A DNA stretch of 64,000 bases from a virus (lineage: Duplodnaviria > Caudoviricetes). Below are positions 5,632-38,680 of the stretch, one piece after another (the stretch's first letter is position 1; each line of letters starts with the position of its first letter). Under the pieces are notes generated by a model. The model had not been told where the DNA came from and made no database searches. It saw nothing but the letters and a program-made list of their open reading frames with translations. The translations under genes and the position numbers were made by a program. Location of the stretch: IMG/VR virus record IMGVR_UViG_3300014968_000012, positions 1 to 64,000 of that record. The stretch is one strand, 5' to 3'.

Positions 5632-5939
5632 CGGCCGACGCGCCGGCGCGTCCCGACCCGTCGTACGTCGCCGGCCACCCCGAGCTCTTCGAAGCGCTGA
5701 GTCTGTCGCTGCCCGCCGCGCGCGTGGCCGCCGCCGATGCCCTGTTCGACCGGCGCGGCCTACGCCGGCTGACCGCCGACGACGACCACCTGAACCGCGG
5801 CGGCGCGACACGTCGGCACCAGGTGGCGGCCGCCGACGCCCACGAGGCGGTCCGGGCGTTCCTGCGGGAGCTCGCGACGTCGCCGGCCGGGCGCCTGACC
5901 GTCGTGACGCTGTGGGAAGCCCACGAGCACGGCGCCTGA
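5628..5939 (+). CDS. Hypothetical protein
   Basis: ATGA overlap with the HAD gene stop. Confidence 0.55.
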   Translation: MTADAPARPDPSYVAGHPELFEALSLSLPAARVAAADALFDRRGLRRLTADDDHLNRGGATRRHQVAAADAHEAVRAFLRELATSPAGRLTVVTLWEAHEHGA

Positions 5940-6065
5940 CACACACGGATGATCTTGGCCCGGTCTTCGGTGCTGGGGTTGTCCGATCACTGGCAATCGT
6001 GACACTCCGTGGTGTGTGGAATGCGGAGGATCAGATTATTCCCATTTCGCGCTAGGCTCCCCCAC

Positions 6066-7142
6066 ATGAACCGTGAGGAGCGGGATGCGACGGTCACGAA
6101 TCTGCCGAGCGCTCGCCTGCGAAGAACTCCCGACGCCGGCGCCGCGCGAGACGGGGCGCGAGCGGGGCGGATCAAGATCTTGGGAGCCGAACTCAACGAA
6201 CTGGCGGAACTGAGCGACGACCGGGAACCTGGCAGCAACCACTTTCTACCGGTGGCGAACCTGGCGGCCGCATGGCTCGCCGGGGGGCGCTCGGACCGAA
6301 CCCGAACGGCCTACCGGGCGGACTTGGCGCGGTACTTCCGCTGGTGCCACGAACACGCGATCAACCCCGCCACGGCCAAATCGTCGCAGGTCAGAGCCTA
6401 TGACCTGTATCTACGGGGCGTCACGCCGCACCCACGGTCGCCCGGGAAGGGGTCGGCCGGCTACGCCAAGTCCAGCCGCGCCCGGTTCCTGTCGGCCGTG
6501 TCCTCGTTCTACGTGTTCGCCCACCAGCGGGCCGAGATCGCCGAGAACCCCGCCGCGGCGCTGGTCCGGCCCGAGAAAGACACCGTGAGCCGGCGGACCC
6601 TGCGGCCGGACGAGGAACGGGCGCTGTGGGCGTTGATAAGCGGTGACGAGCCGCCGGCGCTCAAGGCGATGCGGTTCAAGGACGTGGTGACCGTGGCCAC
6701 CGTCCTGGCGCTCGGGCTGGACCACGCGTGGCGGCCGTGCCAGGTCTACGCCGCCCGCGTCCTGGACCTCACCCACACCGCGACCGGAATCCCCGCGATC
6801 TCCACCCGCGCCTCAGCCGACAGTCCGCCGGCCGTGCAAGCACTGTCCCCGCGCGCCGTCGGCTGTATCAACCAGATGTTGATCAACGGGCGCGGGTTCG
6901 CGTCCTACATCTGGGCCGACCAGGCGAAAGCCGCATGGGGGGCCGTGAACTGGGGCCCGCTGTTGTCGGTGACCGGCCGGCGCCCGATGGGGCGTCAGTG
7001 GCTCTCGTACACGCTGGAAGAGGTCGCGATCCTGGCCGGCATCGACCCCGGCCGCGACGCGAAACACCAGACGGACCGGCTCACCCCCCTGACGCTGCGA
7101 CGTACCGCGCTGACCCGAACACAGGAGACCCCCACGGCATGA
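6066..7142 (+). CDS. Tyrosine recombinase-like protein lacking most catalytic residues, including the Tyr nucleophile
   Basis: Integrase core-binding region (TRTAY..DL..YFRWC, S.AR.LSAVSSFY, ENPAA). Box I reads AWRPCQ. Box II reads LTPLTLRRT instead of TPH.LRH. The ORF ends about 10 aa later. Confidence 0.75.
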   Translation: MNREERDATVTNLPSARLRRTPDAGAARDGARAGRIKILGAELNELAELSDDREPGSNHFLPVANLAAAWLAGGRSDRTRTAYRADLARYFRWCHEHAINPATAKSSQVRAYDLYLRGVTPHPRSPGKGSAGYAKSSRARFLSAVSSFYVFAHQRAEIAENPAAALVRPEKDTVSRRTLRPDEERALWALISGDEPPALKAMRFKDVVTVATVLALGLDHAWRPCQVYAARVLDLTHTATGIPAISTRASADSPPAVQALSPRAVGCINQMLINGRGFASYIWADQAKAAWGAVNWGPLLSVTGRRPMGRQWLSYTLEEVAILAGIDPGRDAKHQTDRLTPLTLRRTALTRTQETPTA

Positions 7143-7888
7143 ACGAGCTCGTCACCGGACTGCGTCCCTACATCCACGGCCACGACCCGGATCCGTGGCG
7201 GATGGAAGGCGCCGTCTTCACCGACTACCTGGCCGAATTCGTCCCCGAGCTTGACCGGCCAGCGACCGGGCTCCACGTCTTCCCGCACCCCGACGGCAAA
7301 CGGACCACCGCAATCGGTCAGAACGTGGGGATCACCGTCTGGATCCTGTCCGACCGTGGAGCCATGGGCAACGGCCACGCCGCGGCGCTGACGGTCGCCG
7401 CCGCGGTGGCGTACGAGCACGACGACACCGCGCTGTTCGACGTCCATTGGACCGGCGGCATGCAGGCGATCACGGCCCCGGAACTGGGCCGGATGCTCCG
7501 GGCCGTCGAATCCTTCTATGCCACCCTCCCCGAGGGTGAGGCGCCTCTGATCGCCGGCCGGATGCCCTACGGCGACCCCGGCCGCGTCGCCGACCTCACA
7601 CGCCAAGCCGTCCCCATCCCCGACCCGGACACCCTGAGCGGCCTCCAGCGCCGCCGGGGCGGCTATCAGGGCATGTCGCACGAGGAAGCCGTGGAGATCG
7701 CCGTCAAGGAAGCCGCGCGGCGCGGCCACACGGCGGTTCGCCGGAACCCGGAAGGGCAACAGGTCTGGCGCGGATGGTGTGTGGCGTGCCACATGGACCT
7801 CATGGTCTTCCCGGCCACCATGGGTGGGGACTGTCTGCTCAAAGACTGCCCCATGGTGGAGAAAACGACAGAAATCACCGGAGAGTGA
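7139..7888 (+). CDS. Hypothetical protein with C-terminal CxxC...C...C motif
   Basis: ATGA overlap and AGGAG RBS inside the end of the recombinase gene. Confidence 0.7.
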   Translation: MNELVTGLRPYIHGHDPDPWRMEGAVFTDYLAEFVPELDRPATGLHVFPHPDGKRTTAIGQNVGITVWILSDRGAMGNGHAAALTVAAAVAYEHDDTALFDVHWTGGMQAITAPELGRMLRAVESFYATLPEGEAPLIAGRMPYGDPGRVADLTRQAVPIPDPDTLSGLQRRRGGYQGMSHEEAVEIAVKEAARRGHTAVRRNPEGQQVWRGWCVACHMDLMVFPATMGGDCLLKDCPMVEKTTEITGE

Positions 7889-8069
7889 CAACATACTGAT
7901 GTGGAGCTACAGACACGGACCCCGACCCGGCCACACGCCGCCGGGCCTCATAACCCGGCGCGCGCCGGCCCGCCGGTCGCGCGCCCGGACGCCATCGTTT
8001 CCCCGGGGCTCCCTGGAGACGCGATCTTCAAGGTACTGCCCAGACCCCGCAGAACCGGAATGAGGAACC

Positions 8070-8288
8070 ATGACCACCACCGACCGTTGGACCGCCGCCG
8101 CGTTAGCCGCCGTCATCATCCTGTTTCTGGTGTGGAACGGCTTGTGTGCGCGCCGATCAGCCGCCGCGCTGGAACGCATCGCTGACGGTGTGCGCCGGGC
8201 CACGCGCCCGAACCTCGGGAGCGCCCAGCCGGACCGCGCCGCGCTGTTCACCTCGCCACGCACCACCGACGCCCGGCCGCCACGGTGA
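8070..8288 (+). CDS. Small membrane protein
   Basis: GAGGA RBS. N-terminal TM segment AAALAAVIILFLVW. Confidence 0.6.
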   Translation: MTTTDRWTAAALAAVIILFLVWNGLCARRSAAALERIADGVRRATRPNLGSAQPDRAALFTSPRTTDARPPR

Positions 8289-8355
8289 CCGCCGCCGAGT
8301 CCCGCCAGGGCGCCGCCCCCGTCCTGGCCTGCGTCCAGGACGCCCGGCCCCACTG

Positions 8356-8586
8356 GTGACCATCGTCCTGGCGCTGTTGGTCGCCGCCGGACTCGGATGC
8401 ACCGCCGCGGCGCTGCGTGTCCTGGAGCGCCGCGTACAAGAACTGGAACGGCAATCCCGCGACGCCGCCACGAACCGCTCGCCGCCCGCCGACGAGCCCG
8501 ACCACAAGCCGCAAGCGCCACCCGCAAGCGCCAGCGGCGAACTTCCCCAGACGCTCGTACTACACCTCTTCGGAGACCACGAATGA
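8356..8586 (+). CDS. Small membrane-anchored coiled-coil protein
   Basis: VTIVLALLVAAGLG TM segment followed by heptads. GTGA coupling to a 24-aa ORF at 8285..8359. Confidence 0.55.
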   Translation: MTIVLALLVAAGLGCTAAALRVLERRVQELERQSRDAATNRSPPADEPDHKPQAPPASASGELPQTLVLHLFGDHE

Positions 8587-8632
8587 GCTATTCAGAGTTC
8601 GCCACCGCCGCGACCACGACGGGAGCCGCAGC

Positions 8633-8743
8633 ATGAACGCGCCATCCACCGGGGGCGTGTGGGGGTGGGCCGTAGGGACCGCAGCATTCGCCGTCGCCGC
8701 CTTCCTGTGCGGCACGTGGTGGTGCAAGCGGGGTCACAAGTGA
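8633..8743 (+). CDS. 36-aa membrane peptide
   Basis: ATGA/GTGA coupling at both ends. One TM helix followed by KRGHK. Confidence 0.5.
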   Translation: MNAPSTGGVWGWAVGTAAFAVAAFLCGTWWCKRGHK

Positions 8744-9258
8744 ACGGGTGCACCGCCGACCCCGAAGAGCTCGGCGAGTACTACGCCCGGATTCACCCGC
8801 TGGACCGCGACGGCATCCCGTGGGGAGCCCCCCTCGTCGGCCGTGGAGCGTTCTCGCTCCAGGTGGCCGCCGACGACCCCGGCGACGGCCTGGACCTGTC
8901 CTGGAGCGCCGGCGTCCGGCTCTCCCCGGTCCGGCTCGGGTTCCGCACCATGGCCACGGCGCGCGCCGGCCGGATGGGGCCCGGGGACTACGCGGTGGAG
9001 CTCTTCGCCCCGGCCAATGACCTGGTCTGGCGCTATCTGATGTTCCCCCGCGTGCGGGGCGCCGTCCTGGAGGTCCCGGACTGGCAGGGACACAACCGGC
9101 TGTTGTACTCGATCACCGGCCTGGCCGTGGTTCCGCGCTACCTGCCCGACCTCGGAATCCCCGACTTCCGCCCCGGTGAAGACAAGGGCACGATGTATAA
9201 GAGCACCACCAGCCGATTCGACCCGGTGAGGATGTGGAGGGGGGTCCCGGCCACATGA
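8740..9258 (+). CDS. Internally deleted paralog of the major tail (tube) protein
   Basis: R...LD..G.P...P, AF, GFR, AVEL and W.YL..P...G motifs in the same order as in 31807..33411. Confidence 0.65.
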   Translation: MNGCTADPEELGEYYARIHPLDRDGIPWGAPLVGRGAFSLQVAADDPGDGLDLSWSAGVRLSPVRLGFRTMATARAGRMGPGDYAVELFAPANDLVWRYLMFPRVRGAVLEVPDWQGHNRLLYSITGLAVVPRYLPDLGIPDFRPGEDKGTMYKSTTSRFDPVRMWRGVPAT

Positions 9259-9752
9259 TCGGCTTCCACGGCGACGCGGTGGAGAAAGCCGGCGAGGTGC
9301 GACGCCTGCGCGTGATCCTGGCCACGCGCCTACTGCTCCGGATGACCGCCGTCCAGTATCACCACCTGTCGGCGGCGTTGCCGAGCGTGCCCCCGTGCGA
9401 CTCGATCGAGTACAGCGGCACGGTGGGGGCCATGGGCGTGGACTATGAGATCAACGGCCACGGCTACGGATACCACCGCATCCGCTATGACGCCGGGCTC
9501 GGCTGGGCGTGCTGCCACCAGCGCGGCCCGGGCCGTACCCACCCCTTCCAGGCGTTCCCCGACTGCCAGGACAACGACGAGGCGCTGAACGCGATCGTGG
9601 CGCACATCATCCAAGACGCGATCGAGAACCGGTACCGCATGCCGCTGGACCGGAACCTCTTCCACGCCGACGACGAGCCGGCGCCGGGCCTGACGTGGGA
9701 CCCGTTCGCCGGCAAGTGGACCGGCGGCCACGCGACGGGACCGGCATCGTGA
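9255..9752 (+). CDS. Hypothetical protein sharing a domain with 10237..10722
   Basis: ATGA coupling. GYHRIRYD...W..C motif. Confidence 0.65.
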   Translation: MIGFHGDAVEKAGEVRRLRVILATRLLLRMTAVQYHHLSAALPSVPPCDSIEYSGTVGAMGVDYEINGHGYGYHRIRYDAGLGWACCHQRGPGRTHPFQAFPDCQDNDEALNAIVAHIIQDAIENRYRMPLDRNLFHADDEPAPGLTWDPFAGKWTGGHATGPAS

Positions 9753-10240
9753 GAACGCCGAAGTTTGCCCAGCCGTCGTCACAACCCGGACTGGCCCCGG
9801 AGTTCGTTGCCGCGGCGGCCGCGTGGCCGTCGGGCCGGCTGTTGCTGTCCGCCCGCATGAGGCTGATCAAGCACTACGGCCGGGACCCCGCAGACATCAG
9901 GATGGCGACGCACGTCCACCTGACCGACCCCGAGGAACGGGCGGCGTGGATCTCCCTCGCCGCCCGCCACCCCGACGGCCCGGTACACCTGGTCCACGTC
10001 TTCGCTTTCGACCCGCGCGCGGGCGGCTGGCAGCACGACACCGCCCCGGAGGAATACACCGACGACGGACCGCCCGGCCGCCGCGTCGCGTTCGTCAGCG
10101 CCAGCGACCCGTTCGACGTGATCAAGGTGACCGACACGAACCGGTACGGCCGCCAGGTGGCGACCTACCTCAACCGAGCCGCCGCGACCCGGGCCATCCC
10201 CGGCGCGCGCCGTAGCGAACAGGAGACACCGCACCGATGA
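9749..10240 (+). CDS. Hypothetical protein
   Basis: GTGA coupling, in frame with track ORF 9509..10240. Confidence 0.6.
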   Translation: MRTPKFAQPSSQPGLAPEFVAAAAAWPSGRLLLSARMRLIKHYGRDPADIRMATHVHLTDPEERAAWISLAARHPDGPVHLVHVFAFDPRAGGWQHDTAPEEYTDDGPPGRRVAFVSASDPFDVIKVTDTNRYGRQVATYLNRAAATRAIPGARRSEQETPHR

Positions 10241-10722
10241 GCCACGCCGCCGACCCGATCGAGATCCCCGGACAACTGGTGCCCGCCCCCGCCGGCGCCC
10301 CCCTGGGCCACCACGCCGCCATGATCGGTGACGAACTGAGCCGCCGACTGGCGCCGTACGCCGACGTCAGCACGTTTGAAGTGACCGTGACGCCGTCCGC
10401 CGACCCGGACATCCGTGTCCCGGCCGGCCTGGAGATCGTGATCCCGGCGGAATCCCCGCTCGGCTATCACAAGATCACCTATGACGAGACGCGCCAGTGG
10501 GGCTACTGCTCAGCGCAGAACGCCGACCCCGCCTCGTGCTGGATCCCGCTCCCCGACGCCCCGACGCCCGAGGTGCTGGACGCCGCCGTGGAATGGGTCG
10601 TCTACACCCACCGCCGACGCGACCGGCACGACCCGTCGGCGCCGCTCCCGGCATCGGCGGGTGCTGATGGGGCGATAGCGGTTCGACACGTGTCAGACCC
10701 GGGCGCGACAATGCCCGCATGA
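10237..10722 (+). CDS. Hypothetical protein sharing a domain with 9255..9752
   Basis: AGGAG RBS and ATGA coupling. GYHKITYD...W..C motif. Confidence 0.65.
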   Translation: MSHAADPIEIPGQLVPAPAGAPLGHHAAMIGDELSRRLAPYADVSTFEVTVTPSADPDIRVPAGLEIVIPAESPLGYHKITYDETRQWGYCSAQNADPASCWIPLPDAPTPEVLDAAVEWVVYTHRRRDRHDPSAPLPASAGADGAIAVRHVSDPGATMPA

Positions 10723-11192
10723 CCCCCGAGAGCCGCAACCCTCACAACCGGGACCACCACGGCGCCGCGACCGTCGCGCCGGCGACGGCCACGTACACCG
10801 TGACCGACGAGGACCGCGAGGCGGCGCCGGCGATGGTGGTCGTCGTCGGCGGCCGCGAGTACACGGCCACGTGCCCGCCGTCCGAGGTGTGGGCCTACCT
10901 CGCGCCGTACCTGCGCGTAGACGGCACGATGCCCGGCCAGGTCTGGCGACACCTCGCGTTCCAAGACGAGGCCACCGCCGGCCTGGAGGGCTTCGACGCC
11001 TTCCGTGGGACCTGCGACATGGTCCGGGCCGGGTCCCGGTTCCTGGCCGGGTCCCTGACTCACGAGGGAATCCACGAAATCCGGATGCAGCTGGCGGCCG
11101 GCACGTGGACCGGCCATGACGTCATGCTGAACGTCCGCGCCGCGGTGGGCCTGTGGTGGGACCACGTGACGGTGAGCCCCGACCTTGACTAG
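10719..11192 (+). CDS. Paralog of the tail assembly chaperone
   Basis: GG..Y.A..P...VW...A, A...FL...LT......IR and G........A....W motifs match 39156..39587. Confidence 0.6.
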   Translation: MTPESRNPHNRDHHGAATVAPATATYTVTDEDREAAPAMVVVVGGREYTATCPPSEVWAYLAPYLRVDGTMPGQVWRHLAFQDEATAGLEGFDAFRGTCDMVRAGSRFLAGSLTHEGIHEIRMQLAAGTWTGHDVMLNVRAAVGLWWDHVTVSPDLD

Positions 11193-11532
11193 CCGACCGG
11201 ACTCCGACGACATCGCCGGTGCCCCGATCACGCAGGCGGAAGCCACCCGCCTGCGTGAAGACATCGCCCGGGTTGAAGCCACCATGAAAGACGTCGTTAG
11301 CGCGATGCACGCCGGCGGCTACCGGCCCCAGCGTGCGGCGCGGCCCAAGGACCAGCGTGGAGCGCTGCCCTGGAAGCACATGGGGCCGTCCCCGTTCTGG
11401 GCGGTCCACGGCTACACGGACCGCGCCGCCTCCAGGCTCGGCGACGTGATGGGCCTGATTCAGGAAGCTCGCGAAGATCTTCAGGCCGCCAAGTCCCAAC
11501 TGAACGCGGCCGGTCACTCCCCCCGTGGCTGA
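11185..11532 (+). CDS. Coiled-coil hypothetical protein
   Basis: Overlaps both neighbours. Heptad pattern. Confidence 0.6.
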   Translation: MTSRPDSDDIAGAPITQAEATRLREDIARVEATMKDVVSAMHAGGYRPQRAARPKDQRGALPWKHMGPSPFWAVHGYTDRAASRLGDVMGLIQEAREDLQAAKSQLNAAGHSPRG

Positions 11533-11878
11533 GTCCTGCGTCCCGCCGGCGCGCGCCGGCGACGGCCCCGACCTCGGGTGCTGGGACCCGGCGGCGCTCG
11601 CGGCCGTCCGTCGGGACATCGCCGCCCTGCGGGACGCCATGACCGACGACATTCGCCGCCAGCGCGTCTATCTCGGGGACCTGACCGCAGTCCTGTACCA
11701 GCGGAACGCCGTGCGCGGCGAGCTCACGGACGCCCTGTTGCGGCTGGACGCGGCCCGCACGCAACTGGCCACCGCCAGCGCCGTGGGCCGCGACGTCGGG
11801 ACCGTGCTGCGACGGCTGGACGCGGCCGCCCGCCGGATGGACCTGTTCGCAGAATTGATCATCACTCCGGTGGAGTAG
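11525..11878 (+). CDS. Coiled-coil hypothetical protein
   Basis: Overlapping GTG start. Ala/Leu/Arg helical composition. Confidence 0.55.
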   Translation: MAESCVPPARAGDGPDLGCWDPAALAAVRRDIAALRDAMTDDIRRQRVYLGDLTAVLYQRNAVRGELTDALLRLDAARTQLATASAVGRDVGTVLRRLDAAARRMDLFAELIITPVE

Positions 11879-11918
11879 CGTTCCCCGATCCGACCGACAC
11901 CCCGTGCATGATCGAACC

Positions 11919-12818
11919 ATGAGCGTTTCGACGTCCGGGCGGCTTCAGTGGCTTGCCGACGTCGCCCGGGCCGCCGGTCTTGACGTTGTCGAGACCGACG
12001 GGTGGCGCCAGCGCGGACACGGGGACTTCCGTGAAGTCCGCGGCGTGATGATGCACCACACCGGCGACGGCGGCCATGGGAACATGCCGGCCCTTCCAGC
12101 CCTGATCAACGGCCGCCCGGACCTCACCGGGCCGCTGTGTAACTACGCGCTGGGCCGGGACGGCACCGTGTACGTGGTGTCCGCCGGCGTGGCCTGGCAC
12201 GCCGGGACCGGCGTGTGGTCGTGGCTCCCGCGCGACCTCGGGAACTGGTACAGCGTCGGCATCGAAGCCGAATCCGTCGGCACGCTCGATGACTGGACGC
12301 CGGCCCAGCGCGCGACGTACCCGCGACTGTGCGCGGCTATCTGCCGTGCGCTGGGCGTGGACGGGAGTCGCGTCGTCGGTCACAAGGAGTACAACCCGCC
12401 GCCGGGCAAGTTCGACCCGGCGTTCTGGGACATGAACGCCGTCCGTGCGCAGGTCAACGCGCTTCTGAAAGGTGACGACATGGACACCGCCACGCCCGTG
12501 GGCTTCCCCGCCGACGCCCCCGGATACTTCGAGAGCCTGTTCCCGGGACTCGGCGCCGTGATCAAAGCGAACTTCACCCCGGGCGGCTCGGCATCGTTCG
12601 GGATGACGACGGCGTACACCGACATGCGCGCGTGCGCCGCGCTGTACCTCGGGATCCAGAACGCCAAGGCCCTGGCGACGGTGAACGAGACGCTGGGCCA
12701 GGTGATCGCGGCCCTGTCCCGGGCCGTCCCCGGCTTCGCCATGGCGGCCGCTGAGGAGTCGGCCCCACCGTCGGCCGGCGCGGGTGTGGCGGCTGGACCG
12801 CCGACGACGAGCGCCTGA
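11919..12818 (+). CDS. Endolysin, N-acetylmuramoyl-L-alanine amidase (Amidase_2 type)
   Basis: WLADV.R.AGL.V.E..GW..RGHG, MHHTG, GRPDL.GPL, AWHAG, GIE, GHKE and K.DP motifs typical of actinophage lysin amidases. Confidence 0.9.
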   Translation: MSVSTSGRLQWLADVARAAGLDVVETDGWRQRGHGDFREVRGVMMHHTGDGGHGNMPALPALINGRPDLTGPLCNYALGRDGTVYVVSAGVAWHAGTGVWSWLPRDLGNWYSVGIEAESVGTLDDWTPAQRATYPRLCAAICRALGVDGSRVVGHKEYNPPPGKFDPAFWDMNAVRAQVNALLKGDDMDTATPVGFPADAPGYFESLFPGLGAVIKANFTPGGSASFGMTTAYTDMRACAALYLGIQNAKALATVNETLGQVIAALSRAVPGFAMAAAEESAPPSAGAGVAAGPPTTSA

Positions 12819-12940
12819 CGTCGGCCCGCCGGCCGGTCGCCCCATCCGCAGACCGGGGCGGCCGGCCGGACCTTTCGGGCACGGGTCGTCTGATATGTCG
12901 CTGGCGGATCATCGGCTGGCGCGCACCGTACGATCAGGTT

Positions 12941-13942
12941 ATGACAGACCATTTCGATACAAACTCTCCGGAATCCGACGCCGGTAGCACGTTGACCATG
13001 CCGGCCGGGGACGATCGGGTCCGAGCCGAAGACCTGGCCGTGGTCATGGTCCCGATCGACTCAGTCCAGCCCCACCCCATGAACAACAACGTCGGCGACG
13101 TGGACACGATCGCCGAGAGCATGGACGAGCTCGGGTTCTTCGACCCGATCACCGTCCAGAAGTCCAGCGGCAACATCATCACGGGCAACCACACGTGGAA
13201 GGTGCGTAAGGCCAAGGGCCTGACGGACATCGCCGCCATCGTCGTGGACGTGTCCGACTTCAACGCCCTGCGCATGATGGCCGTGCACAACCGGTCCAAC
13301 CGGAAGGGCCACGAGGACGGTCAGGCAACCTTTGATCTCCTCCAGACCCTTCAAGACCTGGGCCACGAGGACTACGGGCTCAGCGGCACCGGCTATGACC
13401 TGGACGACGTGGAAGCGCTGTTGGCCGAGTACGGCCAGGCCGAAGTCCCGACCTTCCCCGACGACGAGCCGCCGGCGCTGATCCCGCGCCAGGCCATCGC
13501 CGACGACGGCGAGGAAGAGGACGAGCCGGAATCCACCCGGACCAAGAGCGCACCACGCCTCACCGGGATGAAAGAAACGGTCATCGTCCTGCCCGCCGCT
13601 GAGGCGTCCGACCTGGCCCGGGCGCTCGCCTCATGCCGAAAGCGCATGCCCGGCGGCTACCCGACCGGCCGCATCGCCTACGCCGCCGTGCGGTACCTGG
13701 AGCTCGCGTTGGACAGCGGCGCCCCGCACCCCGAGCCGTGCCCGTGCGACAACTGCGCGGACCACGGCGAGGCCTGCGCGTGCCTGGAGTGCACGGCGGC
13801 GCGCGCCGCCGCGGTGGACGACGACCAGGACCAGGACGACGGCGCCGAGCCCGACGACGACGGGGACGACGAGGACCAGCACGACGAGGCCGACGGCGAC
13901 GGCGCCGAGCTCCCCGCCGCCGCGTCGGCGGCCGCCCCATGA
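12941..13942 (+). CDS. ParB/Srx-like N-terminal domain protein with Cys-rich and acidic C-terminus
   Basis: PIDSV.PHP.N...GDV..IAES..E.GF..PI.V...II.GNH motif. CPCDNC...CACLEC tail. Confidence 0.8.
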   Translation: MTDHFDTNSPESDAGSTLTMPAGDDRVRAEDLAVVMVPIDSVQPHPMNNNVGDVDTIAESMDELGFFDPITVQKSSGNIITGNHTWKVRKAKGLTDIAAIVVDVSDFNALRMMAVHNRSNRKGHEDGQATFDLLQTLQDLGHEDYGLSGTGYDLDDVEALLAEYGQAEVPTFPDDEPPALIPRQAIADDGEEEDEPESTRTKSAPRLTGMKETVIVLPAAEASDLARALASCRKRMPGGYPTGRIAYAAVRYLELALDSGAPHPEPCPCDNCADHGEACACLECTAARAAAVDDDQDQDDGAEPDDDGDDEDQHDEADGDGAELPAAASAAAP

Positions 13943-14757
13943 ACGCCGGCGCGGTGACGATCCCGGCCCAGCGGCCGGCGCCGTCCGCCTCGTCTGAGGC
14001 GCGGTTCCGGGTGTACTGCCTGTCGGCGGGGCGCCCGGAACGCGTCGGGGCGATCATGGACGTGTTCGGGTGGGACACCGTGTTCGTCACGCCTCCCGAG
14101 CAAACCGGCGCATACCTGGGCGCCGGGGCGTACCGCGTGCTCGGCGCCCCGGACACCAGCACGTACCCGCTGGCGGCCGCGCGGAACTACGCCATGGACG
14201 ACGCGTTCACCACCGGGTGCGTGTGCGTCCAGACGGACGATGATCTGGACGGCCTGTACGCCGTCCCCGAGGGACGCCGCAAGCCGACGCCGGCGACGTT
14301 CGCCGACTACACCGCGGCGTGGCGCCACGCCCACGAGGCCACCGGCGCGTTCCTGGTCGGGTGCATGCCCGCCGGGTCGAAGAGCGGACGCCACGAAGTC
14401 GAGAGCGCGTACATCCCCTCGCGGCTGTTCGCCATGTGGCCGAACACCGCCGGGTGGGCCGGCCGGGGCCTGCGGTTCGATGAGTCGCTACCGCTGTACG
14501 AGGACTGGGACCTGACCGCCGCCCACATCTCCCGCCGCGGCCGCGTGGCCCGCTGCGGGTGGCTCATGCCCCGCTACGTCGCCGGCCCCCACCCCGGCGG
14601 CCGCCAGGACCGCTTCCGCGGCGCGACCCTGGAGCGCGAGACGCGGGACAAGCTGATCCGGCGCTGGCCCGACCACCTCAGCACGGCCGCCGGCGGCGAC
14701 GGGCTGAAGCTCATCGCACCGCCCCCCGCCCCGACGTCCAAGGACACCGTGCCGTGA
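13939..14757 (+). CDS. GT-A glycosyltransferase, TET-associated (TAGT/GREB1-like) type
   Basis: S.GRP start, ARNYA, QTDDD metal motif, FDE.L..YED.DLT..H, GG motif. Sits between ParB and kinase. Confidence 0.65.
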   Translation: MNAGAVTIPAQRPAPSASSEARFRVYCLSAGRPERVGAIMDVFGWDTVFVTPPEQTGAYLGAGAYRVLGAPDTSTYPLAAARNYAMDDAFTTGCVCVQTDDDLDGLYAVPEGRRKPTPATFADYTAAWRHAHEATGAFLVGCMPAGSKSGRHEVESAYIPSRLFAMWPNTAGWAGRGLRFDESLPLYEDWDLTAAHISRRGRVARCGWLMPRYVAGPHPGGRQDRFRGATLERETRDKLIRRWPDHLSTAAGGDGLKLIAPPPAPTSKDTVP

Positions 14758-22629: not shown

Positions 22630-24276
22630 ATGGCCTGGTTCAGCCGCCGCCGGCCGAAGACGGCCGCCCCGTCCACGGCGACGATGACGGCACGGAAGGC
22701 CCCCGAGCCCGCGCGCATCCGCCGGAACGCCGGCGCGGACGGGCACTTCCGCGCGGCGAACCGGAAGTTCGCCCGGGACACGAACGGCCAGGCGCTCACC
22801 GCCGCCGCGCAAGTCGTCACCGGCAAGCAACTGCGGACGATCGTCGGGAAATGGTCATGGCAGAAATCGGCTTATGACTATTACGATTCCTGCGGGGAAC
22901 TGCATTTCGCGATCAACTATCTGGCGCTGGCCGGGTCGCGCGCGAAACTCTACGTCGGGGAGCCCGACGAGAACGGCGCCGCCGAGCCGACCCCGTCCGA
23001 CGATGAGGACGCTAAGTCTCTCCTGAGGGAGCTCGGGGACGACTTCACCGCGCATGCCGAGCTCATCCGGAAGATGTTCATTCACCTTCTGGTCGGCGGC
23101 GAGACTTTCGTGATCGGCTATGACGACCCCGCCAGGAACGGCGAGCGCCGTTGGACCGCCGTCTCACAGGACCAGTTGAAGATCAGCGGTGAAAAGATCT
23201 TCCTGCGTACGTCGCCGACGACTCAGATTGAGTTGCGCGACGACGATTCTCTGATCGTCCGTGTGCACTTCCAGGACGCGCGCTATGACTGGGCGCCGGA
23301 ATCGCACATCCGCGCGCTGTTGGGGGACCTGGCCAGGCTCCAAGCCCTGTCCTCCCACACTCTCGCCACCACGGACTCGCGTCTGGCCGGCGCCGGAATC
23401 CTGCTCATCGGCGATTCGGTGTCGCCGCCGCCGGGGAATCCCGGTGACGAGGTCCAGCATTCCGACCCGTTCGTGGACAACCTGATTAACTCCATGGTGG
23501 TCCCGATCAATGATCGGAATTCTGCGAGTGCAGTTGTGCCATTTGTCGTCCGCGTGCCGGACGAAGCCCTGGACAAGATCAAGCACATTACTTTTTCCAC
23601 GCCGTTTGATGAGCAGGTTCCCAAGCTCACTGATATGACGTTGAAAAAGATCGCCATCGGCTTGTCAATGCCGCCGGAAATTCTGCTGGGAATTGGTGAT
23701 ACAAATCATTGGTCCGCCTGGGCCATTGACGAGAATGTCGTGAAGCTCAGCATTGCGCCAGTGCTGGGCGTGATCTGCCAGGCGCTCACGTGCAACTACA
23801 TGCGGCCGGCGTACGAGGCGGACCAGAAAAAGCCGTGCAATGCGGTGATCTGGTTCGACACGACCGAGCTCACGCAGCGCCCGGACAAGAGCGAAGACGC
23901 GCTGACCCTGAACGCGCGCGGCCTCATCTCCGACGCGACCACGCGCCGCGCGTGCGGGTTCAGTGAGGACGACGCCCCGACCGACGCCGAGCGGCTGAAG
24001 AGCATCCTGTGGGACCTGGCCACGAACCCGGCCACCGCGGCGCTGATCCTGCCCACACTCGGCGTGAACCTGCCCGAGCTCGCAAGCGGCCGGCTCACCC
24101 GCACGCCGGCCGTCATCTCCGAGCCCGACGGCACGGCCGACGACAGCGGCGCCGAAGACGCCGAGCTCGCCGACCCGCCGCCCGTGGACAAGACGCGGTC
24201 CATCCCGGACCGGCCGTCCCGCAACACGCCGCCGGCCACGCCGGCACTCCCGGCCGGACGCGGGGGTGGCTCGTGA
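22630..24276 (+). CDS. Portal protein
   Basis: WQ..A..YYD..GEL.FA.....LAGSR.KLY, GILL, LA.GL.MPPE.LLG.G..NHWSAW motifs. Position between terminase and head genes. Confidence 0.85.
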   Translation: MAWFSRRRPKTAAPSTATMTARKAPEPARIRRNAGADGHFRAANRKFARDTNGQALTAAAQVVTGKQLRTIVGKWSWQKSAYDYYDSCGELHFAINYLALAGSRAKLYVGEPDENGAAEPTPSDDEDAKSLLRELGDDFTAHAELIRKMFIHLLVGGETFVIGYDDPARNGERRWTAVSQDQLKISGEKIFLRTSPTTQIELRDDDSLIVRVHFQDARYDWAPESHIRALLGDLARLQALSSHTLATTDSRLAGAGILLIGDSVSPPPGNPGDEVQHSDPFVDNLINSMVVPINDRNSASAVVPFVVRVPDEALDKIKHITFSTPFDEQVPKLTDMTLKKIAIGLSMPPEILLGIGDTNHWSAWAIDENVVKLSIAPVLGVICQALTCNYMRPAYEADQKKPCNAVIWFDTTELTQRPDKSEDALTLNARGLISDATTRRACGFSEDDAPTDAERLKSILWDLATNPATAALILPTLGVNLPELASGRLTRTPAVISEPDGTADDSGAEDAELADPPPVDKTRSIPDRPSRNTPPATPALPAGRGGGS

Positions 24277-27200
24277 TCCCCGCCCCGTTCACCGTCGGCG
24301 ACCCGTTCGCCGCGGCCCGCCTGCGCGCGACGGCCCACATCATCCGGTCCGAACGCGACCTCACCCGCAAGATCACGGCCGCGATGGACCGGTGGCTGGA
24401 AGGCGCCGTCAAGGCGATCTATGGCCGGCCCAACGCGCTGTCCCTGATCGCCGACGCCGGCGACGTGACCACCGGCACCGGCGCGGCCGGGGAGTCCCTG
24501 CCCAACCTGAATCTGTGGCCTGACCTGGGCTCGTGGCAAGTGATGATTGACACGGTCGTCCTGCCCGAGATCACGAAACTGTTCGGGGACGCGTTCATCA
24601 AGGCGACCCGCGAGGCGGACATTCAGGACGCCCCATACAGTCAGGCCTACATCGCGATTGTCCACGACCGGCTGAGCCGGAACCTGTGGCCGAACGACGT
24701 ATTCGACGACGTCCGCGAGGTGATCGGCGACGGCATCGCCGAAGGCCTGTCCATCGACAACATCACCAAGAATCTTCGGTCGGTCCTCCAGGTAGATCAC
24801 TACGCATGGGAGGCCCGCCGGATCGCGCGGACCGAGACCATGGGCGCCGTCAACGGCGGCCAGTGGAACGGCGCCAGCGCGTACGCCGAGCTCACCGGCG
24901 AGACGATGTTCAAACAGTGGTTTGCCACGATGGACACCCGCGTCCGGCTGGACCACTCCAGGGCCCACCAGCAAGTCGTCCCGATCCAGACGGACTTCGT
25001 CGTGGGCGGCTACATGATGGCCTATCCCGCCGCGCCCGACGGACCCGCCTCAGAGGTCTGCAACTGCCGCTGTGCCCTGTTGATCTTGGACGAGCAAGAG
25101 GCGTCCGCCTATATCGACGTCGGCGACTGGTCCGGCGACGACGGCGAACAGGGCCCGGACGAAAACCTCCAGGACATCCTCACCGAAGCCGGGGTGTCCG
25201 ACGCCGCTACCACCATCAGCCCGGATGATCTGGGGGTCTCCGTGACCGGCTCTACAGCCACGTTCGCAGGCAGCGCACCGACCATCGCGCCCGGCGCCCC
25301 GCCGGTCGTCCAGGCCCCCGGGGACACCGCCCCGGACGGCACGGACGGCCGCTACTGGTGGGGCATCCTGGCGCCGCTGGACACCGATTCCGCCGACGGC
25401 CGCGTGATCAGCGCCCCCGACGGCGGCGACCCGCGCACACGGCCGCTCCCCGTCCCGATCCTGTATCAGGACACGTTGGCCCCGGCCCACGACGGCGCGT
25501 TTCAGGTGGGCCTGATCCGGGCCGTGGGCGTCAAAAACGGCAACCTGTACGGCGCCGGCACGTTCGACATGGAGGACCCCCGCGCCGCCGGCATCGCGCG
25601 CAAGGTGAAGAGCGGCAACGCCGGCTGGATCTCCGTGGACCTGGACGACACCACCATGGAGTTCGAAGCCGCCGCCGACGGCGACGAGGAACGCGGCCGG
25701 GTCGTCGCATCGGACTGGCGCCTGATGTCCGCCACGCTCGTGAACCAGCCCGCCTTCCCCGAAGCGAAGATCCAGACAGGACGGCCCGGCGACTACTTCC
25801 CCGAGCTGGACAAGGCGCTGGACGATTCGGACATCGGGGCTCACTCGGCGTACGACCCCGAGACGTACCAGATGTGTACCGACCGGCGCTGCGAGCGGTG
25901 CACCACGTTCCTGTCCACGGTGTTCGGGCTCTGCGTGGACCAGGACTGTACGACGTGCAAGACCGGCGGGTGGCACGCCCCGCCCGCCACCGTCGCCGCG
26001 GCGACGCCCTGGCCGTTCACGTGCTGCGACAACTGCGTGGTCTGTGCCACCGGCCACGAGCATGTGTACGGCGGCCGGTTCGCGTGCTGCCAGGACGCCG
26101 ACTGTGAGATGTGCCCGGAGTACGGCGCCCCGTGCGACGACCCCGAGTGCGAATACTGCGGCAACCACACCGGCGCGGCCGCCGACGGCGACCAGGCGGC
26201 CGGCGCCGGCGCACACGCGAACCAGGACGGCCAGTGTGAACCGGACTGCGCGGACTGCGCGCTGGACGCGTACGCCTGCGACGACCCCGAGTGCGGCGAG
26301 TGCCGCGCCGTCGCCGCCGCGGTGGCGCTCGGGAAGACGGTCCCGCACAAGGGGTCCACCGGGCCGGCCAAGCCGTCCGGGAAGCGGCACGCCCACACCA
26401 GCAAGCACGGCAAGAACAAGGGGCGCCGCACGCTGTCCGTTCCGGCCACGTCCGTGCGCCGACCGACGAAGCCGGCCACGAAGCCCACGGCGCCAGCGAC
26501 GCGCACGGCCGCCCCCACCGCCGGCATGAGCATTCGAGAGGGGGGCGCGATGCGCTTCACCGTCCTTCACCCGGACACCGGTCTTCCGGTGGCGGACCGC
26601 AACGCCGCATGGGACTCGGGCGCGGCCGCCAAGCGCGTGGCCGACTACGCGCGCACGAACGGCGCCCTGGACCCGGCCAAGTACGGAAAGGCGTTCCTGT
26701 ACCGCGACGCCGGCGCCGACGCGGCCACCGCCGCGGCGTACAAGCTCGGATACGCGGACATCGTGAACGGCCGGCTGACCATCATCCCCAAGGGCGTGTT
26801 CGCCGTCGCCGGCGCACTCCAGGGCGCCAGGACGCCGCTTCAGGTCCCGTCCGCCGAGCGGGCCGGCCTGCGCTCGGCGGTGGAACGGCTGTACGGCCGC
26901 CTCGCCTCAGCGCTCAAGGACGACACGATCAAGGCGCCGTGGAAGGACGATGAGAAGACGGCGGCCCACGGCGCGGTCACGTTCGCCGCGCTGACCGCCG
27001 CCGGCGTGTTCGCCCCGCCCGTCGCCTGGTTCGATGACCCGCGCCTGGACGGCCCCACGGGGACGATCGTCACCGACGAGGGACGCACGTACGGCCACAT
27101 CGCCGCATGGGGCACGTGCCACACCGGCATCCCGGGCAAGTGCGTGAAGCCGCCGAAGTCCAAGAGCGGTTACGCGTACTTCCACCTCGGGCTCGTCCGC

Positions 27201-27857
27201 ACCGCTGAGGGTGAGGACGTCCCGGTGGGGACGCTCCACTTCGGCACCGACCACGCCGACACCCGCGCGTCGGTGAAACTCCACGACGCCCAGCGCCACT
27301 ACGCCGACACCGGGTGCGCCGCCGCCGTGGTCCGCGTCGGTGAGGACAAGCACGGGATTTGGTTCGCCGGCGCCGTGCTGCCCGGCCTGGACGATGCCGG
27401 CCTGGCCACGCTGCGGCACGCCCCGCTGTCCGGGGACTGGCGCCAGGTGGCCGGCGCGCTGGAGCTCGTCGGCGCGCTGTGCGTGAACCAGCCCGGCTTC
27501 CCGATCCCGCGCACCAAGTGGAGCACCGACGAGGGCCAACAGGTCTTCGCGCTGTGCGCCGCCGGCGCGATCCAGCCGGCCCCGGTCGGCGGTCAGTGCT
27601 CGTGCGACGTCTGCCCGGCCCCTGTGGACGACGAGGTCCCGGGCCCGGACGAGGCCCGCGCCGAGTTCGCCCGGCTCATGGCGCCCCTGGTCGCCGATGA
27701 GCTTCGGGGCGACGCCGCACGCGTCCGGGACGCCCGGGCAACGGCGGCGATGAACTCCCTCAGCGGCGGCCGCTCGGGGGCGGCCGCGCCCAGCGATTCC
27801 GGTACTCGGCGCGACCGTCTGGCGCGCGCCGCGGCAACCCTTCGAAAGGGGGTCTGA
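24273..27857 (+). CDS. MuF-like head morphogenesis and capsid maturation protease fusion
   Basis: ARRIARTET, KQW.AT.D.RVR..H and CNCRC (MuF). Then a protease-like domain, Cys-rich insert, AWDSGAA domain, and GHIAAWGTCH...SGDWR...VN.PGFP domain. Confidence 0.85.
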   Translation: MIPAPFTVGDPFAAARLRATAHIIRSERDLTRKITAAMDRWLEGAVKAIYGRPNALSLIADAGDVTTGTGAAGESLPNLNLWPDLGSWQVMIDTVVLPEITKLFGDAFIKATREADIQDAPYSQAYIAIVHDRLSRNLWPNDVFDDVREVIGDGIAEGLSIDNITKNLRSVLQVDHYAWEARRIARTETMGAVNGGQWNGASAYAELTGETMFKQWFATMDTRVRLDHSRAHQQVVPIQTDFVVGGYMMAYPAAPDGPASEVCNCRCALLILDEQEASAYIDVGDWSGDDGEQGPDENLQDILTEAGVSDAATTISPDDLGVSVTGSTATFAGSAPTIAPGAPPVVQAPGDTAPDGTDGRYWWGILAPLDTDSADGRVISAPDGGDPRTRPLPVPILYQDTLAPAHDGAFQVGLIRAVGVKNGNLYGAGTFDMEDPRAAGIARKVKSGNAGWISVDLDDTTMEFEAAADGDEERGRVVASDWRLMSATLVNQPAFPEAKIQTGRPGDYFPELDKALDDSDIGAHSAYDPETYQMCTDRRCERCTTFLSTVFGLCVDQDCTTCKTGGWHAPPATVAAATPWPFTCCDNCVVCATGHEHVYGGRFACCQDADCEMCPEYGAPCDDPECEYCGNHTGAAADGDQAAGAGAHANQDGQCEPDCADCALDAYACDDPECGECRAVAAAVALGKTVPHKGSTGPAKPSGKRHAHTSKHGKNKGRRTLSVPATSVRRPTKPATKPTAPATRTAAPTAGMSIREGGAMRFTVLHPDTGLPVADRNAAWDSGAAAKRVADYARTNGALDPAKYGKAFLYRDAGADAATAAAYKLGYADIVNGRLTIIPKGVFAVAGALQGARTPLQVPSAERAGLRSAVERLYGRLASALKDDTIKAPWKDDEKTAAHGAVTFAALTAAGVFAPPVAWFDDPRLDGPTGTIVTDEGRTYGHIAAWGTCHTGIPGKCVKPPKSKSGYAYFHLGLVRTAEGEDVPVGTLHFGTDHADTRASVKLHDAQRHYADTGCAAAVVRVGEDKHGIWFAGAVLPGLDDAGLATLRHAPLSGDWRQVAGALELVGALCVNQPGFPIPRTKWSTDEGQQVFALCAAGAIQPAPVGGQCSCDVCPAPVDDEVPGPDEARAEFARLMAPLVADELRGDAARVRDARATAAMNSLSGGRSGAAAPSDSGTRRDRLARAAATLRKGV

Positions 27858-31198: not shown

Positions 31199-31807
31199 TT
31201 GACAATCATCGTGCCCAAGGATGCCGACGACTTCGACGCGCTGTTGAACCTCGCGCTGAACGCCGACTATCCGGACAAGCGCATTGAGTTGCGCACGCAC
31301 ACGCCGTTCACGTCGCTGGACGTCCCCGAGGGACTGGCCCGCGCGATGGGCTTCGTCCCCGCCGACGAGGCCGCCGCCGCGGCGCCGCCGGCGTCGCCCG
31401 AAGCCGTCGTCTCCCCCGAGCTCGGCGCCGACGACGACGGCCAGGCCGCCGAGCCCACGGCGCCGGCGACCCCGGACGACGAGGCGCCGGCCCCGGACGC
31501 GACGGCCGCTCAGGTCGAAGCAACGGCCGACGTCCCCACCGACGACGCCCCGGCCCCGGCGCCGGCCGACGTGCCCGCCGACGCGCGGGCGACCGACGCC
31601 GCCGAGCCGACGGCCCCGGAGACCACCGACGCCGCCGAGCCGGCGCCGGCCACGGAAGCCCCCACCGCCGCCGAGCCCGCCACCGCTGAGGAGATCGCGC
31701 CCGACGCGGCCGCCGACGCGGACGACGAGCCGGCCGCCGCCAGTGAGCCGACCCCGAGCCGCAGGAGCGGCCGGGGCGGCAAGTCCAAGGAAGGACGGGA
31801 CGTCTGA
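31199..31807 (+). CDS. Ala/Pro/Asp/Glu-rich head-region protein
   Basis: TAAGGA RBS. Short globular N-terminus followed by a low-complexity tail. Confidence 0.65.
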   Translation: MTIIVPKDADDFDALLNLALNADYPDKRIELRTHTPFTSLDVPEGLARAMGFVPADEAAAAAPPASPEAVVSPELGADDDGQAAEPTAPATPDDEAPAPDATAAQVEATADVPTDDAPAPAPADVPADARATDAAEPTAPETTDAAEPAPATEAPTAAEPATAEEIAPDAAADADDEPAAASEPTPSRRSGRGGKSKEGRDV

Positions 31808-33411
31808 TGGCGCCTCCCCAGTATTGCCCGTCGTACGCGTTCGGGCGCCGCCTGCGCGTCACGCGCCTGGACGGGTGCGGTAACCCCGTCGTCGGGCCGA
31901 AGTCGCAGGTTGTCACCCGCGCGTTCACGGAAGTCGCAATCAGCCCGAACATCCTCACCGGCGACGAGATCACGGTGAAGAACGCGGGGGGTGAGCTGTG
32001 CATCTCGGATAAGGCCCTTGATTCGATCAAGTGGCTGAACATCAAGATCACGATGTGTTCGCAGGACCCCGACCTGATCAGCATCCTGAACCCGACCTAC
32101 GCTCAGGAGACGGACGAGGCCGGGTCGGCGATCGGGTTCCGCATGGACACCTCGCAGACGTACGACGCCGCGTTCGCCGTGGAGCTCTGGACCGACGTCA
32201 CCGGCGTGAACCTCTGCTCTCTGTCCGGCGAGGCGCCCCCCGGCGCGCAGGTCGGGCAGTGGGGCTATCTGTTGTTACCTTTCTGTCAAGGCGGATCGCC
32301 CGGAGACCTCTCCGTTTCCAACAAGGAACTTCTGACCGTGTGGAACGGCCGCACCCTGCCCAACGCCCAATGGGGCGTCGGGCCGTGGCCGGTCCGGTAC
32401 GACATGACTCAGAGTCCTTGGTCGCCGCGTCCGCTGAGGACGCCGGTCGCCGGCACTCAGCCGCTCGTGTTCTTCCTCACCACGCTGGCGCCGCCTCAGG
32501 ACCAGTGCGGCGCCCAGCCGGTCCCGGCCACGGTGCTGCCCGCCCCGGCCGGCCTGGAGTTCCTGAGCGCGACCGGGACGACCCTGTCCGCCTCGTGGAA
32601 CCAGGTCCCCAGCGCGCTGAACTACACGATGACCGTCGTCCAGCACGGCACGACGACGCCCGTCTTCACGGCGACCGTCCCGCCGACGGCGCTCCAGGGC
32701 ACCGTCAGCGGCCTGACCGCCGCGACGACGTACGACGTGACGGTGACCGCCGACGGCGACGGCTCCACGCGCATCACGTCCGTCCCGTCGGCCGTGGTCC
32801 AGATGAGCACCCTTCCCCAGCTCGCCACGCCGACGGTGTCCAGCACGACGCCGGCGCCGACTCAGACGAGCTTCAACGTCTCTTTCCCGCCGGTCACGAA
32901 CGCCGTGTCCTACGTCGCCACGGCGGTGAAGAACGGGACCACGTCGCCGGTCTACACCGGCACCATCACGCCGGGGTCGCCGAACGTGGCGCACTTCAGC
33001 GGCGGCGGGATCGCCGGCGGCAACACGTACACCGTGTCCGTGGTGGCCAAGGGCGACAACATCAGCTATGCGGACTCGGCGGCGGGTACGCAGGCGATGA
33101 CCACCGCGGCGCTGATCGCTCTATCGTCGCCGTCCGGCCTGACGGTGCCGAGCGGCACCATCACGGCGACCGGGGCTCAAGCCTCGTGGACGGCCGTCGC
33201 CAACGCGAGCTCGTACACCGCGGCGACCACCGTCACGTCCGGCGGCGCGGCGGCCGGCACCACGACCGTGGGCCCGCCGAACACCGCCACCGCGGCGACG
33301 GTCACCGGGCTGACGACGGCGACCGGCTACACCATCAGCGTCACGGCCGTGGGTGACGGGATCACCTACGCCAACAGCACGCCGGCCACGCAGACGTTCA
33401 CCACGCACTAG
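31807..33411 (+). CDS. Major tail (tube) protein with three C-terminal FN3 domains
   Basis: LRVTRLD.CG.P, FAVELW, WGY.LLP and WG.GP core. Three repeats of SW..V..A..Y...Y.V.V.A.GD. Confidence 0.85.
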   Translation: MAPPQYCPSYAFGRRLRVTRLDGCGNPVVGPKSQVVTRAFTEVAISPNILTGDEITVKNAGGELCISDKALDSIKWLNIKITMCSQDPDLISILNPTYAQETDEAGSAIGFRMDTSQTYDAAFAVELWTDVTGVNLCSLSGEAPPGAQVGQWGYLLLPFCQGGSPGDLSVSNKELLTVWNGRTLPNAQWGVGPWPVRYDMTQSPWSPRPLRTPVAGTQPLVFFLTTLAPPQDQCGAQPVPATVLPAPAGLEFLSATGTTLSASWNQVPSALNYTMTVVQHGTTTPVFTATVPPTALQGTVSGLTAATTYDVTVTADGDGSTRITSVPSAVVQMSTLPQLATPTVSSTTPAPTQTSFNVSFPPVTNAVSYVATAVKNGTTSPVYTGTITPGSPNVAHFSGGGIAGGNTYTVSVVAKGDNISYADSAAGTQAMTTAALIALSSPSGLTVPSGTITATGAQASWTAVANASSYTAATTVTSGGAAAGTTTVGPPNTATAATVTGLTTATGYTISVTAVGDGITYANSTPATQTFTTH

Positions 33412-38149: not shown

Positions 38150-38680
38150 ATGACCGGATCTACTCACGAACTGGGACAGGTCGCGTACGAGGCGTACGCG
38201 GACGCCGTGGACTGGACCGCCTTCAACGGCGAGCGAATCCAGACCTGGGACAACCAGGACCCCGCACGCCGCGCCGCATGGGCCGCGTCCGCCGAACGCG
38301 TCGAAGCGCTCACCAAAGCGCGCATCGCCGCCGGCCTCGTCTCCTCCCTCCCGCACGGGTGCCGCAGCAAGGCCCTGGAGTGCATCACCGCGGCGTCGCT
38401 GGCCGGTGAGGACACCGGCGCGCCGGCCGCGCTCACCGGGTGCTCGTCGTCGCAGTCCGCTGACGCCACCGCCTCGTGCCCGGGCGGCACGTGCGACGGC
38501 ACCGGCACGCTGACGCTCTCCGAGCCGCCGGCCGACGCCGCCCCCGCCGACGAGCCGGCGACGCCCGAGCCTGCACAGTCCTCGGACGCCGACTACGCCA
38601 CCGGCGGCACCGTCCCGGCCCCGGCCCAGAGCCCGGACGCCGCGTGGCCGGCCTCGTCCGCGTCGGCGGCCGCCGAGTGA
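38150..38680 (+). CDS. Hypothetical protein (AYEAY...W....AW motif)
   Basis: TAACCT-N6-ATG. Confidence 0.6.
   Translation: MTGSTHELGQVAYEAYADAVDWTAFNGERIQTWDNQDPARRAAWAASAERVEALTKARIAAGLVSSLPHGCRSKALECITAASLAGEDTGAPAALTGCSSSQSADATASCPGGTCDGTGTLTLSEPPADAAPADEPATPEPAQSSDADYATGGTVPAPAQSPDAAWPASSASAAAE

Follow-up and report, generated by a model that had tools for sequence, protein, structure and literature searches.

A conserved tail-tube-domain paralogue, apparently without the ring-stacking element, encoded away from the tail module in phages from metagenomes

Paralogues with the tube fold are textbook components of phage tail modules, where they serve as terminator, distal tail protein or hub. 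Tail terminators (lambda gpU, SPP1 gp17 class), small relatives of the tube proteins, attach to the tube end and halt its growth; their genes belong to the tail/neck module, and they are indispensable to the virion. The Hcp protein of type VI secretion belongs to the same fold class, and its rings do not stack on their own. In tube proteins, the helix that flanks the sandwich is located between beta3 and beta4. The canonical tube fold, as set out in PMC8718954, consists of beta1, beta2, a long beta2-beta3 loop, beta3, beta4, beta5.1/5.2 and beta6.1/6.2, together with the flanking helix, and the beta2-beta3 loop supplies most of the ring-to-ring contacts. The initial annotation of the locus described here had stated that this loop is needed for polymerisation, and that source bears this out, since deletion of the loop abolished tube formation by T5 pb6 and self-polymerisation of SPP1 gp17.1, in constructs that stayed folded (PMC8718954).

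A tube protein can also be an immune trigger, with Avs16 targets as a further case, and phages counter such recognition, for example with DSAD1 against DSR2. DSR2 holds the tube protein of SPR by its long hairpin in the manner of a pushpin, replacing contacts of its helix, and Avs16 contacts the same conserved hairpin of the tube protein. We know of no tube-like fold in DSAD1. A conserved, selected tube-domain copy that lies outside the structural module and is without the ring-stacking element was not found described.

The gene considered here lies in an IMG/VR virus record of 87,249 bp (linear, 99%-complete), the first 64 kb of which (GC content 71%) were analysed and are called the window below. 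DNA of the virus is present in rhizosphere and soil metagenome sequencing runs, and none of the runs listed with the virus is an RNA sequencing run. A run of plus-strand genes spans positions ~700 to ~48,700 of the window, and the features that frame the gene are the following.

6009-7142, plus strand: integrase-like gene, with a SAM-like N-domain only (PF02899)
8633-8743, plus strand: 36-aa ORF encoding a single-pass membrane peptide (sequence and frame plot), with a stop that overlaps the start of the paralogue
8740-9258, plus strand: gene of the 172-aa tube-domain paralogue, GTG start, TGA stop at 9256-9258
10237-10722 and 10719-11192, plus strand: two genes travelling with the paralogue (blastp across loci)
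11904-12818, plus strand: endolysin, Amidase_2 (PF01510, E 9e-20), the conserved downstream landmark of the block
From 12941, plus strand: ParB_N gene
From 16046, plus strand: large terminase
From 22591, plus strand: portal
24009-27857, plus strand: 1282-aa head fusion protein
From 28178, plus strand: major head protein
31807-33411, plus strand: major tail protein (MTP; phrog_792, E 7e-57; PF00041)
From 33609, plus strand: head-tail adaptor
From 40215, plus strand: tape measure

The frame 8740-9258 is a real gene, and the initial annotation had placed it correctly at both ends. The coding signal of the frame 8659-9258 (GC3 0.88, GC2 0.53) resembles that of other genes in the window, and the frame plot moves to the frame of the gene at ~8700. 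The GTG start codon at 8740 shares bases with the TGA that closes the preceding 36-aa ORF (GTGA), and the orthologue P0001 has the same length of 172 aa. Comparison with the 92%-identical orthologue of contig L014 gave 51 nucleotide and 14 amino-acid differences, corresponding to a dN of 0.049, a dS of 0.298 and a dN/dS of 0.16, which indicates that the gene is under purifying selection. In a scan of positions 5800-13000, no promoter-like or terminator-like site was found to flank the gene. At 8585-8743, the window and L014 differ by an indel or frameshift: L014 has a single 54-aa ORF with a C-terminal transmembrane stretch, and the window has a 17-aa ORF that runs to the TGA at 8634-8636, followed by the overlapping 36-aa transmembrane ORF (ATGA).

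The location of the paralogue, away from the tail module, is conserved. The gene was found in five independent metagenome contigs (L001, L002, L004, L005 and L014), with members 28-92% identical to the window protein. All five contigs present the same layout, in which an integrase-like gene is followed by small ORFs, by the paralogue and then by co-conserved genes of the 10237 and 10719 families, L004 carrying the 10719 family only. Amidase_2 lies downstream in L001, L002 and L005 and ParB_N in L002; the contigs L004 and L014 stop before this point. A 4-bp overlap with the upstream neighbour is present in 5/5 related contigs. This neighbour is a small ORF with a hydrophobic stretch in L001, L002, L005 and L014 and a 263-aa ORF in L004. 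The small upstream ORFs show no mutual homology by blastp across loci, and the arm is rich in such ORFs. In the window, the paralogue lies 23 kb from the MTP gene and 31 kb from the tape measure, and it sits between the integrase-like gene and the endolysin, not in the position of the MTP, which comes after the capsid and before the adaptor.

Several observations concern the neighbours themselves. The PF00589 catalytic domain is present in the integrase-like counterparts of L002, L004 and L005 and absent from those of L001 and L014. The products of 10237-10722 and 10719-11192 had no match of meaningful E-value in Pfam, PHROG, PADLOC or NCBIfam. ORFs 9234-9752 and 10237-10722 are weak paralogues of one another (E 0.001). 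The possibility that 10719-11192 is a copy of a tail chaperone gene was rejected, as it has no BLASTP similarity to 38476-39162 or 39593-40156 and no meaningful PHROG match.

On the basis of database searches, the product of 8740-9258 belongs to a new, very small family, classed here as a variant of the tube-fold paralogues. An exhaustive phmmer search of 1.84 billion representatives recovered five matching proteins, and a profile search added two members, P0018 and P0019. The family amounts to seven 90%-identity clusters, none of them from an isolated phage, and its alignment contains 8 sequences. The product had no match in Pfam, PHROGs (E <= 1), PADLOC or NCBIfam, nor by tblastn at E <= 1 in 50,697 isolated phage records, and megablast of the region gave no match. 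A scan of IMG/VR with a three-sequence alignment returned no relative, a feature search of the protein atlas gave best scores of 0.85, which is the noise level, and a search of the PDB with the family profile returned only a chance peptide-deformylase stretch. Assignment as a peptide deformylase was rejected, since the match is local (56-59 residues, E 0.03) and HExxH is absent from the aligned region.

The MTP of the phage is composed of an N-terminal tube domain (about residues 1-235; 31807-32511) and FN3 domains. Homologues of its N-domain occur in 877 phage records, with the annotation major tail protein on nearly all of those listed. Carriers of a phrog_792 MTP include cluster-B-type mycobacteriophages, phages of Gordonia, Microbacterium and Arthrobacter, and the cyanophage Pam4. 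The gene order capsid, two ORFs, MTP and adaptor is found, whole or in part, in Pam4, AluminumJesus, Argie, Ribeye, Rizwana and Gyarad. Sequence searches of the PDB with the N-domain, alone and as profiles, returned no solved relative, one MTP profile being swamped by FN3 matches. The MTP cysteines C24, C65, C84 and C137 are invariant in the closest relatives, C65 and C84 also across the broader phage set, and none of the four has a counterpart in the small paralogue. Immediately upstream, 31199-31807 encodes a 202-aa acidic, low-complexity protein rich in Ala, Pro, Glu and Asp, which had no PHROG match and whose stop overlaps the MTP start.

Among the sequence methods applied, only profile-profile comparison links the paralogue to the MTP. 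BLASTP of the two proteins was not significant (E 1.8), neither family profile, when run with hmmsearch on the complete set of 724 six-frame ORF fragments from the window, gave more than self matches, and 8740-9258 was absent from the best 8 matches of a 19-sequence MTP profile, all of which were noise (E 2 or worse). A first hhalign comparison of 6 small-family and 13 MTP sequences gave a P of 1.4e-5 over 41 columns. After addition of P0018, P0019 and six diverse phage MTPs (8 versus 19 sequences), residues 11-136 of the ORF aligned with MTP 11-190 at a probability of 92.9%, a P of 3.6e-7 and a score of 50.3. Null scores reached 14.5 +/- 3.1 (maximum 24.3) for column shuffles, 23.9 +/- 2.8 (maximum 29.7) for shuffles of the order of 12-column blocks and 14.5 for the reversed target. 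As the block-shuffle scores are far lower, the hhalign score must rest on several collinear blocks.

The residues that coincide are those that both families conserve. Among the 32 small-family columns conserved at >=85%, 17 align to the MTP majority residue and 5 to a similar one. Four MTP invariants (R17, G25, E126 and Y154) are identical in the paralogue, W128 is a conservative F/W match, and L21, D22, P27, P158, G162 and G181 coincide as well. The N-terminal motif even carries identical residue numbers in the two families, and further along the corresponding ORF/MTP pairs are E87/E126, Y99/Y154, P103/P158 and G107/G162. At the level of sequence profiles, these comparisons show the product of 8740-9258 to be a remote homologue of the MTP N-domain. 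The blocks that the initial annotation had aligned by eye are present in both proteins and collinear, all of them being recovered in the global hhalign alignment, and its central claim of a tail-tube paralogue is upheld by the profile-profile homology and by the tube-type fold predicted for the product.

This fold was predicted with AlphaFold2 from the eight-sequence alignment of the small family, which includes no MTP sequence (pLDDT 80.2, pTM 0.82). In this all-beta model, the strands span residues 15-21, 32-44, 58-60, 64-72, 81-93, 96-112, 121-129 and 152-157, and no helix occurs between residues 12 and 161. VIA-align against 48,161 PDB representatives placed the YSD1 major tail protein first (118 aa, 3.8 A) with a Z of 8.5, a value at the upper edge of the range that unrelated models reach in this library and hence borderline alone; a chain of the JBD30 baseplate entry came second (Z 8.0). 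The tubes or MTPs of SH-Ab15497, Mystique, P74-26, HFTV1, Milano, phiCD508, 80alpha, R4C, SPP1 and A-1(L) followed at Z 5-7, together with several Hcp and a few PilZ barrels, and about 25 further tube or Hcp entries reached Z >= 5. With Foldseek, the top matches in BFVD were, with few exceptions, major tail or tail tube proteins (probability 0.95-1.0, E from 1.4e-3). Foldseek against the PDB gave nothing below 1e-3, and its weak matches were enriched in Hcp and tube proteins and included the tail tube of SPR as well as Bxb1 and HFTV1. Since two structure libraries agree with the sequence evidence, the tube fold was accepted, and the model supports a tube-type two-sheet beta-sandwich, the fold on which the initial annotation had staked its reading. 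Assignment as a PilZ domain was rejected, as RxxxR and (D/N)xSxxG are not conserved in the small-family alignment and there is no Pfam match.

The alignment and the model together delimit what the paralogue keeps of the MTP N-domain and what it has lost.

8782-8889, plus strand: paralogue residues 15-50, with beta1, the R-x3-LD-x2-G-x-P turn and beta2, corresponding to MTP 15-53 (hhalign, model)
8872-8928, plus strand: paralogue residues 45-63, a variable acidic and proline-rich connection replacing MTP 54-93 (alignment, gap mapping)
8929-9147, plus strand: paralogue residues 64-136, with (L/M)GFRT, YAVE(L/V)F and W-x-Y-x2-FP-x3-G, corresponding to MTP 108-190 (hhalign, model)
31966-32085, plus strand: MTP residues 54-93 (40 aa), with a predicted hairpin, strand and helix and no counterpart in the paralogue (hhalign gap)
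32194-32238, plus strand: MTP residues 130-144 (15 aa), a loop between long strands with no counterpart in the paralogue (hhalign map)

The deletion junction falls between paralogue residues 50 and 51, within the connection 45-63 (pLDDT ~73), and the retained part 64-136 holds the long strands 64-72, 81-93, 96-112 and 121-129. The WGxGPY motif, the VKNAGGELC hairpin and the FN3 domains are missing from the paralogue. The absence of FN3 had already been claimed and is confirmed, these domains being found in the MTP only. The same annotation had estimated that about 63 aa were replaced by about 23 aa; counted from (R/G)AF to (I/L)GFR, the interval is 68 aa in the MTP and 27 aa in the ORF, which leaves the shortening in place with both figures slightly raised; the net gap that hhalign assigns here is 40 aa.

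The further proposal that the missing segment is the beta2-beta3 loop holds in part. The gap does start directly after beta2, but in the low-confidence MTP model it spans a hairpin, a strand and the one helix of any size. The segment MTP 54-93 is among the most conserved parts of its family (invariants N59, A60, C65, C84, D89 and L90). The MTP N-domain model is too poor for mapping at the level of residues, and VIA-align gave it low-scoring structural matches (Z <= 4.1), which are nevertheless tail proteins; it places beta1 at 15-21 and beta2 at 34-48, followed by a hairpin (55-58/64-68), a strand (76-83), a helix (88-94) and more strands beyond. Judged from the sequence pattern and from the weak secondary structure of this model (pLDDT 49.5), beta3 and the flanking helix seem to be lost together with the hairpin. 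The long strands 81-93 and 96-112 of the paralogue model, which are linked by a hairpin, fit beta5 and beta6, and the C-terminal strands may substitute for beta3. As the model still aligns with ~110 residues of minimal tube proteins of 130 aa, the paralogue may have a fuller core than the gap implies. In some minimal tube proteins, the beta2-beta3 loop has about the length of the 19-residue connection that remains.

Compared with described systems, the paralogue resembles the phrog_792 MTPs over ~120 homologous columns, with R17, the LD pair, G25, P27, E..W/F and W/G-Y..P...G in common and the same N-terminal spacing. It differs from them in having no PHROG or HMM match, in the absence of 54-93, 130-144, WGxGPY and FN3, in its place outside the structural module and in its length (172 aa against 231-534 aa). 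Like the loop-deleted constructs of SPP1 gp17.1 and T5 pb6, it is a tube domain without the inter-ring loop; unlike these laboratory constructs, it is a gene conserved in nature, and a core strand and the helix seem to be missing from its product as well. Tail terminators offer a natural precedent for a chain-terminating relative of the tube, although no sequence or family link to them was detected, the Mu entry that contains a terminator reaches only Z 4.6 and the location does not fit. Hcp has the same fold class (Z 5.4-6.1), but the paralogue has no type VI secretion context and no sequence relationship to Hcp was detected. With counter-defence of the DSAD1 type, the paralogue shares only the idea of a phage protein that handles tube-triggered immunity.

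The designation of 8740-9258 as a non-polymerising tube-domain paralogue is well supported, and the monomeric or chain-terminating mimic that the initial annotation proposed, like a decoy, is a candidate role. The soluble 172-aa product would share a common ancestor with the tube-forming N-domain of the phrog_792-type MTPs; it would have retained the beta-sandwich core and the residues invariant in both families, and lost the conserved module that follows beta2, the 15-residue loop, WGxGPY and the FN3 decoration. Without the stacking hairpin, it presumably cannot build a stacked tube, and since this hairpin is absent, a non-polymerising role in binding a partner is probable: the paralogue would act as a module that binds something that normally meets a tube subunit. 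The likeliest partner would be the growing end of a tube or a ring, the paralogue then serving as a terminator-like cap or poison for the tails of its own phage or of competing phages; a less likely partner would be a factor of the host that recognises tube proteins. Taken as a whole, this account of a descended, hairpin-less, partner-binding tube-domain module that does not polymerise is the best explanation and, in our judgement, a reasonably probable one. The family may hence be a natural version of the laboratory loop-deletion experiment, and its members are candidates for dominant-negative inhibition of tails or for immune evasion. Were the function to be a mundane one, the family would still offer a minimal tube core, predicted well, for a large family of actinophage MTPs (the 877 records above) that has no solved structure.

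Another gene of the accessory arm bears on how singular this case is. ORF 1934-2464 (176 aa, free-standing) is clearly paralogous to an internal domain (residues 450-589) of the head fusion protein 24009-27857, to which it is 29% identical over 147 aa (BLASTP E 3e-12), and it also matches phrog_859. By sequence similarity, two genes of the accessory arm are demonstrably copies of structural genes, and because 1934-2464 is paralogous to a structural protein as well, the presence of such a copy in this arm is no one-off.

Among the competing explanations, the one that survives best is that the beta-sandwich was exapted for a job outside the tail, such as lysis control or superinfection exclusion at the membrane, together with the translationally coupled membrane peptide and the co-conserved neighbours. 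The GTGA overlap with the 36-aa transmembrane ORF, the small hydrophobic ORF upstream in 4/5 relatives, the co-conservation of the 10237 and 10719 families, the endolysin just downstream and the disappearance of the MTP motifs WGxGPY and VKNAGGELC would all suit such a role. However, the small upstream ORFs are unrelated to each other in an arm that is full of them, and the residues held in common with the MTP are invariant core positions, though these may only preserve the fold. We hold exaptation to be doubtful.

A bolder form of the partner-binding reading is that the hairpin-less copy is a weapon or a shield, either a free-standing xeno-terminator that caps growing tubes and so poisons the tails of competitors whose tube proteins are related, or a look-alike that occupies tube-reading sensors or factors of the host without triggering them. 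If this were so, the accessory arm would, with 1934-2464, hold a set of disabled copies of morphogenesis proteins. The link to tube-sensing defence proposed in the initial annotation is weakened, because DSR2 and Avs16 both contact the very hairpin that is absent here, as is the helix whose contacts DSR2 replaces, and the paralogue would probably be a poor decoy for these known sensors. We rate the weapon or shield reading as unlikely.

We also hold it to be quite unlikely that the product is just a regular minor part of the tail or neck (terminator, tube initiator, distal tail protein or hub) that happens to be encoded elsewhere. The tube-type fold and the Mu terminator/trunk and neck entries at Z 4.6-5.6 agree with such a part, and the gene precedes the lysis, packaging and structural genes on the same strand, which would allow late expression. 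Against this, it lies tens of kilobases from the MTP and tape measure genes, among ORFs for small membrane proteins beside the integrase-like gene, and no paralogue is present in the 50,697 isolated phage records, including the 877 with the same MTP family. As the isolated carriers have none, phages with a phrog_792-type MTP evidently build their tails without it.

Very improbable, finally, is the absence of any common descent, with convergent or chance beta patterning in a common small sandwich or barrel: the insignificant BLASTP, the blank hmmsearch, the similarity of the 'VRI-x-LDR-x-G-x-P' stretch to peptide deformylase and the PilZ barrels at Z 5-6 would allow it, but four collinear blocks score 50.3 against at most 29.7 once their order is scrambled, the N-terminal numbering and the invariant residues coincide, tube proteins dominate two structure libraries and neither the PilZ nor the deformylase motifs are conserved in the small family.

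Two minor observations concern modification genes near the landmarks used above. In L002, the genes at 13364-14676, just past ParB, encode PTPS and radical-SAM proteins and were read as base modification of the queuosine/archaeosine type. In Mycobacterium phage Gyarad, a queuine tRNA-ribosyltransferase gene lies two genes downstream of the MTP gene, on the opposite strand.
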